Shown: piece by piece, positions 25,776-53,170 of the stretch
Layout of the letters: the number at the start of each line of letters is the position of its first letter
Numbering within the stretch: position 1 is the stretch's first letter
Assembly: GCF_048403405.1 (NCBI RefSeq)
Contig: NZ_CP183129.1
DNA: 64,000 nucleotides
Strand: one strand, 5' to 3'
Source: Escherichia coli
Lineage (GTDB): Bacteria; Pseudomonadota; Gammaproteobacteria; Enterobacterales; Enterobacteriaceae
Made by a program: the position numbers and the translations under genes
The notes under the pieces: model-generated
Database searches by the model: none
Told to the model about the DNA's origin: nothing
What the model saw: only the letters and a program-made list of their open reading frames with translations

Positions 25776-26410
25776 TGTTTTGCCGCCTTGATGAGAGTGG
25801 TTTTCACCGGGAAATAATCCGCGCCGAGATACTGTTCCGACTGGCGAATTTGCCCTTCGCTGTCGATCCAGTAGCGGTTATGCCAGCGCGCCTGGTCGGT
25901 GGAGACTTCTTCGTCCAGCACGCGAACCGGGGTTTCATCGCTGCCGACTTTGACGGTATCGGTGCCATCCCATTTGAAGACTGAGCGTGCGGTGGCGTAG
26001 CGTACCTGCTGGTACTCGGTCCAGCCCATCGTGCGCGTCCAGATTGCACCATCAACAATTTGTGCGGGTTTAATCAGCGGGTCGGCAGCAAGGTTATTCA
26101 CCTCAATCAGGTTGTCGCCGCCAAGCAGAGTCTTCACCAGACGACCATGTTGTGTGACGAGAGTAGCCTGATCCTGAGTGACCCATTTTTGTTGTCCGTC
26201 TTCAGCGAAGGCCAGCACCACAAATAACTGCGGTCCGCCATTAAGCTGCATGTACTGGCTGGCGTAGGGCATATTTTGAATATCATCGTCCGTCAGCTGT
26301 ACGCCTGGCGTGCCGAACAGACTGTCCCACAGTGAATTGCCCAGCTCTTTAGTCGTGGCTGAACAGGCCTGTAATAGCAGGCAGATAAGAATGAGTGCAG
26401 GTCGCTTCAC
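25772..26410 (-). CDS. yjbF: Lipoprotein of the yjbEFGH locus (GfcB-like)
   Basis: Lipobox LLLQAC-S; I chose the GTG at 26408-26410 (212 aa); the track's upstream start at 26440 is the alternative. Confidence 0.8.
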   Translation of the reverse strand: MKRPALILICLLLQACSATTKELGNSLWDSLFGTPGVQLTDDDIQNMPYASQYMQLNGGPQLFVVLAFAEDGQQKWVTQDQATLVTQHGRLVKTLLGGDNLIEVNNLAADPLIKPAQIVDGAIWTRTMGWTEYQQVRYATARSVFKWDGTDTVKVGSDETPVRVLDEEVSTDQARWHNRYWIDSEGQIRQSEQYLGADYFPVKTTLIKAAKQ

Positions 26411-26523
26411 GACTCTTCTCCAGGGGGGCAGAATAACCACACCGGAGTGTGGTTATGGTAAATCCCTTCATACTTCAAGCCACAGATGCAATGACTCGAA
26501 TTATTTTGGGGATACATACTTTA

Positions 26524-26766
26524 TTACTGGGTACTGGTGGTCGTGGTTGTTGTGGTCCCGGTATTAGAACCATCACCGCCACCGGTTGCCGCGAGCGCGA
26601 CACCCACCGCCGAGCTTACGGTGCTGACGCTGGTCGCGGAGGAACTCCCCGCCGAAACCGACGTTGCTGCCGACCCTGCCGCTTCGCCCACCTGTACAGG
26701 TGCAGCCCACGCAGAAGTCGCCGCAAGCGCAGATATGGCAAAAATGCCATACAGAACTTTTTTCAT
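26524..26766 (-). CDS. yjbE: Thr/Ser-rich secreted small protein (GfcA-like)
   Basis: [47 protein letters not shown]...[10 protein letters not shown], 80 aa. Confidence 0.85.
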
Positions 26767-27073
26767 AACAATTTCCCTTCATTGAATGAATGGAGATTTA
26801 CCCAAAAACATTTCGGGCGGGATCGAGTATACACAACTAAAGCATGCGAATTACGGCGCGGGGAATTAGCGATGGCGTTTTAGGATAATTGGAATGAATA
26901 TCAAATATAAGTTTCAACTTATATTTAAATAACAATAAAAATCATAAACTTAAAATAAAAACAAAAGTAATTAATCTGCGTATTTTCCGAAATAAACAAC
27001 GATTAAAAATCTATTTTAGGATTAACCTCACGGTATGATTTCCGTTAAATCACAGACAAGGGGATTTATCTGA

Positions 27074-27100
27074 TAAAAAAATGCCGACATAACGTCGGCA
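27074..27100 (-). terminator. Intrinsic terminator after pgi
   Basis: Hairpin tgccgac-ataa-cgtcggca with a T-run on the minus strand 20 bp past the pgi stop. Confidence 0.6.
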
Positions 27101-27120
27101 TTGTTATTAAGGTTTATAAA

Positions 27121-28770
27121 TTAACCGCGCCACGCTTTATAGCGGTTAATCAGACCATTGGTCGAGCTATCGTGGCTGCTGATTTCTTTGTCATCTTTCA
27201 GCTCTGGCAGAATACGGTTCGCCAGCTGTTTACCCAGTTCCACGCCCCACTGGTCGAAGGTGAAGATGTTCAGGATCACGCCCTGAGTAAAGATTTTGTG
27301 CTCATACAGCGCAATCAACGCACCCAGGCTGAACGGAGTGATTTCACGCAGCAGGATGGAGTTGGTCGGGCGGTTACCTTCGAACACTTTGAACGGCACC
27401 ACGTAGTCAAGCGTTGCCGGATCTTTACCCTGATCACGATATTCCTGCTCAACCACTTCGCGGGATTTACCAAACGCCAGCGCTTCGGTCTGAGCAAAGA
27501 AGTTAGACAGCAGTTTCTGGTGATGATCAGAAAGCGGGTTATGGGTGATAGCCGGAGCGATGAAATCGCACGGTACCATTTTGGTTCCCTGGTGGATCAG
27601 CTGGTAGAACGCGTGCTGACCGTTCGTGCCGGGTTCACCCCAGATAATCGGGCCAGTCTGGTAATTCACGACGTTACCGTTACGGTCAACGTACTTACCG
27701 TTGGACTCCATATTGCCCTGCTGGAAGTACGCCGCGAAACGGTGCATATACTGGTCATACGGCAGAATCGCTTCAGTTTCCGCACCAAAGAAATTGTTGT
27801 ACCAGATGCCAATCAGCGCCAGCAGTACAGGCAGGTTTTTCTCGGCAGGCGTGGTGGAGAAATGCTTGTCCATCGCGTGTGCGCCAGAAAGCAGTTCAAC
27901 GAAGTTATCAAAGCCGATGGAGAGAACAATCGACAGGCCAATCGCTGACCATAAAGAGTAACGACCACCGACCCAGTCCCAGAACTCGAACATGTTGGCG
28001 GTATCAATACCAAACTCGCCAACGGCTTTGGCGTTGGTTGAGAGCGCCGCAAAGTGTTTCGCAACGTGTTTTTCATCACCAGCCGCTTTCAGGAACCAGT
28101 CACGCGCACTATGGGCGTTGGTCATGGTTTCCTGAGTGGTGAAGGTTTTAGATGCTACCAGGAACAGCGTGGTTTCCGGGTTTACTTTTTTCAGCACTTC
28201 CGCGATGTGAGTCCCATCGACGTTAGAAACAAAGTGCATGTTCAGGTGGTTTTTGTACGGACGCAGTGCTTCGGTCACCATGTATGGGCCGAGGTCAGAA
28301 CCGCCGATCCCGATGTTCACTACGTCAGTGATTGCTTTGCCGGTATAACCCTTCCACTCACCGGAAATAATCGCTTGCGAGAAGGTTTTCATCTTCTCCA
28401 GCACCGCGTTGACTTCCGGCATAACGTCTTTGCCATCAACCAGAATCGGGGTATTGCTACGGTTACGCAGCGCTACGTGCAGCACGGCGCGGTTTTCGGT
28501 GCGGTTGATCTTCTCACCAGAGAACATCGACTTAATCGCGCCCGCCAGATCGCACTCTTTCGCCAGATCTTGTAATTTCGCCAGCGTCTCTTCAGTGATG
28601 CGGTTTTTGGAGTAATCCACCAGCATCTGATCGTCGAAGGTTGCGGAGAACTTAGAAAAACGATCGCCGTCTTTAGCAAAAAGATCGGCGATCGTAACGT
28701 CTTTCATTTCATCGAAGTGTTTCTGTAGTGCCTGCCAGGCAGCGGTCTGCGTTGGATTGATGTTTTTCAT
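27121..28770 (-). CDS. pgi: Glucose-6-phosphate isomerase
   Basis: [41 protein letters not shown]... 549 aa; track ORF trimmed by two codons. Confidence 0.95.
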
Positions 28771-29015
28771 TAGCAATACTCTTCTGATTTTGAGAATTGT
28801 GACTTTGGAAGATTGTAGCGCCAGTCACAGAAAAATGTGATGGTTTTAGTGCCGTTAGCGTAATGTTGAGTGTAAACCCTTAGCGCAGTGAAGCATTTAT
28901 TAGCTGAACTACTGACCGCCAGGAGTGGATGAAAAATCCGCATGACCCCATCGTTGACAACCGCCCCGCTCACCCTTTATTTATAAATGTACTACCTGCG
29001 CTAGCGCAGGCCAGA

Positions 29016-29200
29016 AGAGGCGCGTTGCCCAAGTAACGGTGTTGGAGGAGCCAGTCCTGTGATAACACCTGAGGGGGTGCATCGCCGAGGTGATTGAACG
29101 GCTGGCCACGTTCATCATCGGCTACAGGGGCTGAATCCCCTGGGTTGTCACCAGAAGCGTTCGCAGTCGGGCGTTTCGCAAGTGGTGGAGCACTTCTGGG
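29016..29200 (+). ncRNA. Lysine riboswitch (L-box) in the lysC leader
   Basis: Leader contains conserved L-box segments AGAGGCGC, GGAGGAGCC and TGCATCGCCGAGGTGA about 100-280 nt upstream of the lysC ATG. Boundaries are approximate. Confidence 0.7.
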
Positions 29201-29294
29201 TGAAAATAGTAGCGAAGTATCGCTCTGCGCCCACCCGTCTTCCGCTCTTCCCTTGTGCCAAGGCTGAAAATGGATCCCCTGACACGAGGTAGTT

Positions 29295-30644
29295 ATGTCT
29301 GAAATTGTTGTCTCCAAATTTGGCGGTACCAGCGTAGCTGATTTTGACGCCATGAACCGCAGCGCTGATATTGTGCTTTCTGATGCCAACGTACGTTTAG
29401 TTGTTCTCTCGGCTTCTGCTGGTATCACTAATCTGCTGGTCGCTTTAGCTGAAGGACTGGAACCTGGCGAGCGATTCGAAAAACTCGACGCAATCCGCAA
29501 TATCCAGTTTGCCATTCTGGAACGTCTGCGTTACCCGAACGTTATCCGTGAAGAGATTGAACGTCTGCTGGAGAACATTACTGTTCTGGCAGAAGCGGCG
29601 GCGCTGGCAACGTCTCCGGCGCTGACAGATGAACTGGTCAGCCACGGCGAGCTGATGTCGACCCTGCTGTTTGTCGAAATCCTGCGCGAACGCGATGTTC
29701 AGGCACAGTGGTTTGATGTACGTAAAGTGATGCGTACCAACGACCGATTTGGTCGTGCAGAGCCAGATGTAGCCGCGCTGGCGGAACTGGCCGCGCTGCA
29801 GCTGCTCCCACGCCTCAATGAAGGCTTAGTGATCACCCAGGGATTTATCGGTAGCGAAAATAAAGGTCGGACAACGACGCTTGGCCGTGGAGGCAGCGAT
29901 TATACGGCAGCCTTGCTGGCGGAGGCTTTACACGCATCTCGTGTTGATATCTGGACCGACGTCCCGGGCATCTACACCACCGATCCACGCGTGGTTTCCG
30001 CAGCAAAACGCATTGATGAAATCGCGTTTGCCGAAGCGGCAGAGATGGCAACTTTTGGTGCAAAAGTACTGCATCCGGCAACGTTGCTACCCGCAGTACG
30101 CAGCGATATCCCGGTCTTTGTCGGCTCCAGTAAAGACCCACGCGCAGGTGGTACGCTGGTGTGCAATAAAACTGAAAATCCGCCGCTATTCCGCGCGCTG
30201 GCGCTTCGTCGCAATCAGACTCTGCTCACTTTGCACAGCCTGAATATGCTGCATTCTCGCGGTTTCCTCGCGGAAGTTTTCGGCATCCTCGCGCGGCATA
30301 ATATTTCGGTAGACTTAATCACCACGTCAGAAGTGAGCGTGGCATTAACCCTTGATACCACCGGTTCAACCTCCACTGGCGATACCTTGCTGACGCAATC
30401 TCTGCTGATGGAGCTGTCTGCACTATGCCGGGTAGAAGTGGAGGAAGGTCTGGCGCTGGTCGCGTTGATTGGCAATGACCTGTCAAAAGCCTGCGGCGTT
30501 GGCAAAGAGGTATTCGGCGTACTGGAACCGTTCAACATTCGCATGATTTGTTACGGCGCATCCAGCCATAACCTGTGCTTCCTGGTGCCCGGCGAAGATG
30601 CCGAGCAGGTGGTGCAAAAACTGCATTTTAATTTGTTTGAGTAA
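29295..30644 (+). CDS. lysC: Lysine-sensitive aspartokinase III
   Basis: MSEIVVSKFGGTSVADFDAMNRSADIVLSDANVRLVVLSASAGITN... 449 aa with C-terminal ACT domains. Confidence 0.95.
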   Translation: MSEIVVSKFGGTSVADFDAMNRSADIVLSDANVRLVVLSASAGITNLLVALAEGLEPGERFEKLDAIRNIQFAILERLRYPNVIREEIERLLENITVLAEAAALATSPALTDELVSHGELMSTLLFVEILRERDVQAQWFDVRKVMRTNDRFGRAEPDVAALAELAALQLLPRLNEGLVITQGFIGSENKGRTTTLGRGGSDYTAALLAEALHASRVDIWTDVPGIYTTDPRVVSAAKRIDEIAFAEAAEMATFGAKVLHPATLLPAVRSDIPVFVGSSKDPRAGGTLVCNKTENPPLFRALALRRNQTLLTLHSLNMLHSRGFLAEVFGILARHNISVDLITTSEVSVALTLDTTGSTSTGDTLLTQSLLMELSALCRVEVEEGLALVALIGNDLSKACGVGKEVFGVLEPFNIRMICYGASSHNLCFLVPGEDAEQVVQKLHFNLFE

Positions 30645-45823: not shown

Positions 45824-46139
45824 CTTTTTCTGGCGGGCAGAGGCAATATTCTGCCCATCATACCTGAGTGGCAATAGAATAAGGGTGTCTGTTAATCGCA
45901 TTGACGCCAAAATAACTTATTGTCATACACTTCACACGCTTTTATTACCTCAGCATTATTTTTAAACATCAAACCACTTAATTATTAACAAAATCGCAAG
46001 ATCTCATTCCACCGAAACTTTTACGGCTGCATTATGAGATTGAGCGATTTATGATATTTCTTTACTTGTAATCATATTAAATTTTTTCACTGTTCTGATA
46101 GTTAAAATTCAAGACATCAATAAACAATGAGATATTTAA

Positions 46140-50049
<3,910 letters not shown>

Positions 50050-53024: not shown

Positions 53025-53089
53025 CGTGCAGCTCCTCGTCATGGATCCGAAAACTTCCCCACTGTGAACGAAGGATCGTTGTGCGCTTT

Positions 53090-53170
53090 TCGTTCAGCAC
53101 AACTAAGACTACTCATTTAAAATGCAAAATCAAAAACAATTTCCATTTTAATTAAAAATACATGATAACT
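53090..53170 (-). promoter_or_regulatory. aceBAK promoter region with a candidate IclR operator
   Basis: AT-rich tract upstream of aceB containing, on the minus strand, AAATGGAAATTGTTTTTGATTTTGCATTTT, which resembles the IclR box (TGGAAAT...ATTTCCA-like); read by eye. Confidence 0.45.

Follow-up and report, generated by a model that had tools for sequence, protein, structure and literature searches.

The AT-rich region between pgi and yjbE of Escherichia coli as a probable upstream activating region of the RcsA-RcsB-activated yjbEFGH operon

Introduction

The yjbEFGH operon of Escherichia coli is listed among the operons activated by RcsA together with RcsB, and it is one of those induced most strongly by the Rcs pathway. 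Envelope damage induces it 20- to 50-fold, together with wca and rcsA. The rcsA gene itself has two RcsAB boxes, which lie ~170 bp before its start site in DNA also bound by H-NS, and it is derepressed in an hns hha mutant. A second type of site, the RcsB box, follows the pattern TN(G/A)GAN4TC(T/C)NA.

The DNA upstream of yjbE is a known control region, whose regulation by Rcs and IHF is already on record. Debaugny et al. state, second-hand, that the yjbE promoter region carries one IHF binding site and two RcsB binding sites. The same authors describe an occupied nucleoprotein complex from which ParB is excluded in exponential, stationary and rifampicin-treated cells, an exclusion that vanishes once the region is deleted. 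Mutations of yjbEFGH also recur in experimental evolution, in connection with mucoidy, phage resistance and predator resistance, and a correct map of the control region helps in interpreting intergenic mutations, such as the sweep in one of the elements described below (box B).

Here, we describe the conserved elements of the spacer that separates pgi from yjbE, within a 64,000-nucleotide stretch of E. coli DNA (hereafter, the window). An earlier note on this DNA had proposed an AT-rich, envelope-stress-activated control region, and the second part of this proposal is borne out by the literature as RcsA-dependent activation through the Rcs pathway; the tract thus lies upstream of an operon known to depend on RcsA and RcsB. 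We report three RcsAB-box-like elements, their spacing relative to the helical period, an activator-dependent type of promoter and a predicted 5' UTR with two hairpins, and we weigh this arrangement against silencing by H-NS, an sRNA gene on the opposite strand and a mere spacer.

Materials and methods

All positions are those of the window, and K-12 coordinates were obtained by subtracting the window position from 4,262,672. Conservation was assessed on an alignment of 26 genera (columns on average 51% identical), from which the conservation profile was computed. RcsAB boxes were compared with the 14-bp consensus TaAGaatatTCctA (Wehland & Bernhard 2000), in which T1, A3, G4, T10, C11 and A14 are invariant.

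Results

The pgi-yjbE locus

The 901 bp around the tract are 100% identical to E. coli TUM14771, and they are found at 95-100% identity in 5,425 of 5,426 complete E. coli genomes. On the minus strand, the ORF list and the RefSeq annotation of the identical strain give the order pgi, terminator, AT-rich tract, yjbE, yjbF, yjbG and yjbH (Table 1), with 354 bp between pgi and yjbE. When the REP-type insert of ~144 bp that K-12 carries directly after the pgi stop codon is set aside, only 2 positions of the spacer differ from K-12, and this near-identity means that the K-12 literature applies.

The proteins encoded by the operon match Pfam PF11106, PF11102, PF20616/PF06251 and PF06082, corresponding in order to the YjbE, YjbF/GfcB, GfcC and YjbH families, with E-values from 5e-33 to 8e-270. 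By Pfam, both gene content and gene order are those of the four-gene Gfc/Yjb set for outer-membrane polysaccharide secretion, and the Gfc-type secretion set that the earlier note had recognized in the operon is therefore supported for all four proteins.

The pgi-proximal end of the spacer (27103-27120) is structurally variable among E. coli, the REP-type insert (509-655 of the K-12 locus) being carried by K-12 and many other strains. In strain GN06156, a copy of IS200C occupies the pgi-distal part of the spacer, at a distance from the yjbE start that exceeds 400 bp. The K-12 REP insert does not interrupt the 345 bp that control yjbE, and apparently neither does the IS200C copy. A palindrome, TTATC-N-GATAA, is present just past the T-run of the pgi terminator (27066-27076), where the 26-genus alignment displays a conserved block (27065-27079). 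Further away, a lysine riboswitch (Rfam RF00168, 99.5 bits; 29007-29203, plus strand) precedes lysC (29295-30644, plus strand) and is an expected, known element.

Table 1. Features of the pgi-yjbEFGH locus, in window coordinates
Feature	Position	Strand	Basis
pgi, glucose-6-phosphate isomerase, upstream neighbour	27121-28770	-	ORF list, RefSeq
pgi intrinsic terminator (10-bp stem 27102-27080, then T-run)	27073-27102	-	terminator scan
Rfam RF02053 (STnc430) match	26963-27112	+	77.7 bits against a gathering score of 47
AT-rich core, 78.7% A+T	26881-27035	none	composition, alignment
Box A, TGAGGTTAATCCTA then AAAT, RcsAB-box-like, centred ~-204 from the predicted start	27017-27030	-	consensus, conserved block
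Box B, TGCGTATTTTCCGA then AATA, RcsAB-box-like, centred ~-164	26977-26990	+	conserved block 26984-26993
IHF-like core AATCATAAACTTA, in the middle of the AT-rich spacer	26940-26952	+	WATCAANNNNTTR with 1 mismatch
Box C, TTCCAATTATCCTA then AAAC, centred ~-68	26881-26894	-	conserved block 26878-26887
-35 hexamer position, GTAATT, poor consensus match	26849-26854	-	promoter scoring
Block TTGTGTATACTCGA holding the -10 hexamer	26823-26836	-	varies at one position in 1/26 genera
Predicted transcription start (~K-12 4,235,853)	26819	-	inferred: 7 nt past the -10; hairpin 1 begins right after
5' UTR hairpin 1 (CCCGAAA...TTTTGGG), 5' end of the predicted mRNA	26801-26817	-	RNAalifold, single-sequence fold
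5' UTR hairpin 2 (CCATTCATT-C-AATGAAGGG; inverted repeat I1)	26774-26793	-	RNAalifold
yjbEFGH	22942-26766	-	ORFs, RefSeq names, Pfam
yjbE	26524-26766	-	ORF, RefSeq, Pfam
yjbF	25772-26410	-	ORF, RefSeq, Pfam
yjbG	25038-25775	-	ORF, RefSeq, Pfam
yjbH	22942-25038	-	ORF, RefSeq, Pfam

Composition and conservation of the tract

Positions 26767-27073 contain 68.4% A+T against a mean of 49.0% for the window, which ranks them in the top 1.8% of all segments of 307 bp. An AT-rich tract between the pgi terminator and yjbE, as described in the earlier note, is thus confirmed in both position and richness, and the run quoted there, aataaaaatcataaacttaaaataaaaacaaaag, was located at 26934-26967 on the plus strand. 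The richness is unevenly distributed: the 150 bp starting at 26876 reach 80.7% A+T, the highest value of any 150-bp segment in the whole 64 kb, whereas the 114 bp adjacent to yjbE (26767-26880) contain only 56%.

The ~70 Enterobacteriaceae species recovered all share the pgi-yjbE arrangement together with an AT-rich core (69-83% A+T), which ends 60-196 bp, and mostly ~90-145 bp, upstream of the start codon; such recurrence of the core argues for a maintained feature rather than drift. Across the 26 genera, the central ~80 bp of the core have kept their composition and length but not their sequence. Outside the promoter-proximal block, the conservation peaks coincide exactly with three short elements, designated boxes A, B and C, and the DNA between them is unconserved.

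Within the AT-rich spacer, E. coli harbors a perfect palindrome of 11+11 nt, AAATATAAGTT-ga-AACTTATATTT (26903-26926), which E. whittamii does not have; in DNA this rich in A+T, such a palindrome could have arisen by chance, or it may be a species-specific site. Further strongly AT-rich stretches of the window, with up to 73-78% A+T, are located at 12555-14016, 45838-46277 and 53050-53242.

Three RcsAB-box-like elements

The earlier note had proposed a motif scan for an RcsAB box, and conserved RcsAB-box-like motifs are indeed present in the tract. Box A matches 6/6 invariant positions of the consensus, while matching by eye gave 5/6 for box B and 4/6 for box C, of which only the right half resembles an RcsAB box. 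Box B is oriented opposite to boxes A and C. The three elements have in common the half-site TC[CT][TG]AAA(A), and boxes A and C additionally contain an exact 9-nt direct repeat with a spacing of 136 bp.

Similar sequences are found in K-12 upstream of two classic targets of RcsAB. The TCCTAAAA tail of box A recurs upstream of rcsA, in the RcsAB-consensus-like sequence TAAGGATTATCCGAAAAA, and upstream of wza, in TAAAGAAACTCCTAAAAAC and TAATATAATTCTTAAAAAT, all with a tail of the form TCC[TG]AAAA. For box C, the resemblance to the rcsA upstream sequence extends to identity over ATTATCC[TG]AAAA. We take TAAGGATTATCCGAAAAA (rcsA) and TAAAGAAACTCCTAAAAAC (wza) to be the published RcsAB boxes.

Where the half-site varies between species, it drifts within TC[CT][TG]A, and it does so independently in boxes A and B, which fits separate protein sites. 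The motif TCYKAAAA occurs 5 times in the 64 kb against 10 expected, 2 of these 5 occurrences falling within the 354-bp spacer. Taken loosely, the RcsAB core pattern shows no enrichment over the window, with 13 matches against 23 expected.

Two other matches of the window deserve mention. At the start of a zur-like ORF, TAAGGACATTCTTA (4578-4591, plus strand) matches the RcsAB consensus well and is probably a chance occurrence, given that the loose pattern is not enriched. The occurrence of TCCTAAAA at 3483-3490 was considered as an Rcs site near yjbJ and dropped, as it lies inside an AT-rich ORF of 318 aa (3339-4295, minus strand). This ORF and its flank (3690-4530), located between dusA-like (1939-2982) and zur-like (4553-5128) genes, look like a strain-variable island by composition.

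Helical phasing and the IHF-like core

In the ~80 bp between boxes B and C, the sole conserved part is TCA-N5-TTA (plus strand), whose TCA and TTA columns are 90-100% conserved. At the aligned place, the IHF consensus is matched perfectly in 15 of 70 species and with at most one mismatch in 45. Over the window, this consensus is not enriched (58 found vs 54 expected), and the match of E. coli, with 1 mismatch, is no better than chance. As neither the RcsAB nor the IHF consensus is enriched in the window, the case for these sites rests on conservation together with the second-hand statement in the literature.

The distances between the elements vary in discrete steps. Box C is separated from the -10 by 54 bp in 53 species and by 42-43 bp in 8, the others falling within 41-55 bp (41 in one). 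From box A to box C, the distance is 145-148 bp (49 species), 133-138 bp (13 species) or 123-124 bp (5 species), with nothing between these classes. Most species show a distance of 46 bp from box A to box B, against 35 bp in E. coli. A V-test, which treats lineage-level departures from the modal spacing as independent events, gave P ~1e-4 for an 11-bp period and 3e-3 for a 10.5-bp period. Insertions and deletions in ~11-bp steps indicate that length changes are tolerated only as whole helical turns, hence that bound proteins contact one another on a given face of the helix. From this phasing by itself, we infer that IHF may assist a bend or loop of the intervening DNA.

Predicted promoter and 5' UTR of yjbE

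The sequence from -73 to +20 relative to the yjbE ATG is almost invariant in the 26 genera, and the -10 hexamer TATACT (26826-26831, minus strand) is fully so. In contrast with this -10, the best -35 score does not exceed 3/6 in any species (70/70), and the promoter scan called no consensus promoter on the yjbE strand. The combination of an invariant -10 with a poor -35 is a signature of activator-dependent promoters.

The predicted start leads to a yjbE 5' UTR of ~53 nt. Since both the -10 and this start fall within the 114 bp adjacent to yjbE, the promoter is likely located in this portion of ordinary composition, with the AT-rich core lying upstream of it, untranscribed and distinct from a leader. 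The AT-rich leader upstream of the operon that the earlier note had described is consequently retained as a regulatory region upstream of yjbEFGH, and the term leader is abandoned.

The RNAalifold consensus of 61 species places two hairpins in the predicted 5' UTR. In hairpin 1, one pair alternates between C-G, U-G and U-A. Hairpin 2 is predicted to pair with the Shine-Dalgarno sequence AAGGGA (26774-26779), and all 7 of its predicted pairs are identical in 61/61 species, an invariance that leaves no room for a covariation signal. Its surroundings are nearly invariant too, whereas the spacer overall is ~50% identical, and this near-invariance suggests a trans-acting partner. DsrA was considered as a partner of the invariant 5' UTR and rejected: among 3,456 background windows, the duplex energy of -20.0 kcal/mol ranks at the 59th percentile. 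We also looked for a further copy of the 5' UTR, such as one preceding gfcA, but each of 5,420 E. coli genomes contains the sequence at a single place.

Possible silencing by H-NS

The alternative that survives best takes silencing, suggested in the earlier note, as the main role of the tract: H-NS would nucleate on the core of 79% A+T and repress yjbE, with Rcs acting chiefly by anti-silencing. This proposal, drawn by analogy, is a credible one to which we would nevertheless give clearly less than an even chance. The tract displays the extended AT-richness of an H-NS-silenced promoter (78.7% A+T over 155 bp), includes the 150-bp segment richest in A+T of the whole window and has kept this composition in ~70 species. 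It also has a precedent at rcsA, where H-NS binds the DNA that contains the distal RcsAB boxes and where loss of hns and hha derepresses the gene, and the literature indicates that the region is occupied in vivo with or without active transcription. Weak matches to the high-affinity H-NS motif (tCG[at]T[at]AATT), with 2 mismatches, number 6 in the 354 bp, an enrichment over the ~1.2 expected; closer matches, with one mismatch or none, are absent. Curvature prediction, which the earlier note had put forward as a check, does not help this alternative either: the core has a predicted static curvature of at most ~24 degrees, which is unremarkable next to the 95th percentile of the window (30 degrees), in a wedge model whose values are meaningful only as a ranking within the window. 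Our literature search found no report linking H-NS or hns to yjbE, yjbF or yjbG, and composition alone leaves the 11-bp quantised spacing and the conserved TCA...TTA core unexplained. The two proposals are compatible, and silencing by H-NS could be a layer within the model of an upstream activating region rather than an alternative to it.

A match to the STnc430 family on the opposite strand

The plus strand of the distal tract matches the Rfam family STnc430, an observation absent from the earlier note. STnc430 was predicted as an sRNA of Salmonella between pgi and yjbE, i.e. at the same orthologous locus and on the same strand as the match reported here. The distal tract might accordingly be an sRNA gene of the plus strand, with a promoter at 26929-26956 and its end at the bidirectional pgi terminator. 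The score exceeds the gathering score of the family, the match is immediately preceded by a promoter-like ATAACA-16-TAAAAT with its end at 26956, and other genera commonly have a TA[AT]AAT-like hexamer in that position. Against these points, STnc430 was a purely computational candidate, with 0 cDNA reads in both libraries of the source study, which gives it as "not probed" by Northern, and the full promoter is present at that place in only 6 of 70 species. The main helix of the model is formed by box B paired with box A, so that the modelled structure is an inverted repeat of DNA motifs, devoid of covariation: at its two variable positions, the pair is broken in 8/20 and 15/20 genera. RNAalifold recovers only the terminator, whose hairpin covaries cleanly (98% paired, with compensatory changes at 3 pairs in 20 genera). 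On the plus strand, this hairpin is followed by a poor U-tract and was not called a terminator by the scan. A structured sRNA was therefore rejected on the pair counts, the RNAalifold result, the poor conservation of the promoter and the absence of reads in the source study; we regard an sRNA gene as improbable here, and homology to conserved regulatory DNA rather than RNA best accounts for the match. The family itself probably models conserved protein-binding DNA, which calls for caution in annotation pipelines.

It is very improbable that the tract, as an unusually AT-rich piece of intergenic DNA, does nothing specific other than hold a promoter: E. coli intergenic DNA is generally higher in A+T than coding DNA, and the central ~80 bp are unconserved in sequence, but composition, overall length, the three blocks and the helical phasing of the indels have been kept in ~70 species despite a substitution-saturated spacer, and the literature reports an in vivo protein-occupancy signal that is lost on deleting the region.

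Discussion

We propose that the tract acts as the upstream activating region of the RcsA-RcsB-activated yjbEFGH promoter, and we estimate the probability of this explanation at about three in four. In this proposal, a core promoter with an invariant -10 and a poor -35, located 60-90 bp upstream of the yjbE start codon, would need an activator. Box C would act as the proximal site (~-68), and boxes B and A would form an inverted distal pair (~-164 and ~-204). Boxes B and C would flank an AT-rich spacer of 80-90 bp, unconserved in sequence and with the IHF-like core inside, so that with a bend or loop assisted by IHF, the RcsAB complexes of the distal pair would come close to box C and RNA polymerase. 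Richness in A+T would probably serve bendability, and by analogy with rcsA, this DNA may also bind a nucleoid protein such as H-NS, which RcsAB would displace. The mRNA would begin at ~26819 with a 5'-terminal hairpin, followed by the invariant second hairpin, predicted to occlude the ribosome-binding site.

The IHF and RcsB sites of the literature independently match the elements that we found by conservation, with the caveat that three boxes are proposed here and two RcsB sites are mentioned there. Our findings leave the known Rcs regulation unchanged. What they add is small, namely the phase-locked spacing, the third box, the invariant hairpin occluding the ribosome-binding site and the weakness of STnc430, and they do not amount to a new kind of system.

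A more ambitious hypothesis would see in the control region an undescribed two-layer switch, in which a phase-locked complex of three boxes would form around an IHF bend and the hairpin of the 5' UTR occluding the ribosome-binding site would be opened by a trans-acting factor or a physical cue. We hold this version to be doubtful. If such a phase-locked complex existed, insertions of half a helical turn would abolish induction, whereas insertions of a full turn would not.

A Reg-Seq preprint of 2026 places yjbE among the candidates for an osmotic-stress activator motif common to yjbJ and ybaY. Several of the candidate genes, including yjbJ and osmB, are reported to be Rcs-regulated, and for this reason RcsB could be the factor behind the motif. 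No TCYKAAAA was found near the expected position of yjbJ in the window.

In a K-12 population selected with phage T7, a T-to-C change at 4,235,682 was fixed together with yjbH Y102S (PMC10044975). This coordinate corresponds to position 26990 of the window, which is the last, invariant base of box B. The change may be a hitch-hiker of the yjbH missense mutation.

Among the described systems, rcsA resembles yjbE by the sequence ATTATCC[GT]AAAA, by boxes placed far upstream (~170 bp, to be compared with ~-164 for box B of yjbE) and by activation through RcsA and RcsB. The rcsA boxes are, however, adjacent direct copies 11 bp apart, whereas the distal pair of yjbE is inverted, with its members 40-51 bp apart, and a proximal half-box comes as a third element; silencing by H-NS is established at rcsA but can be extended to yjbE only by analogy. 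Like yjbE, wza (cps, colanic acid) belongs to an RcsA-dependent exopolysaccharide operon, the two being co-induced by envelope stress, and its TAAAGAAACTCCTAAAAAC is accompanied by a second TCTTAAAAA element 35 bp away; wza differs in its long leader with a JUMPstart/ops element (GGCGGTAGCGTG), in contrast to the predicted ~53-nt 5' UTR of yjbE, which features two hairpins and no ops. Finally, the group 4 capsule operon gfcABCDE-etp-etk encodes GfcA, B, C and D, paralogous by Pfam to YjbE, F, G and H. This relationship concerns the coding genes and not the tract, and gfcA is devoid of a yjbE-type 5' UTR, a sequence that is single in each E. coli genome.
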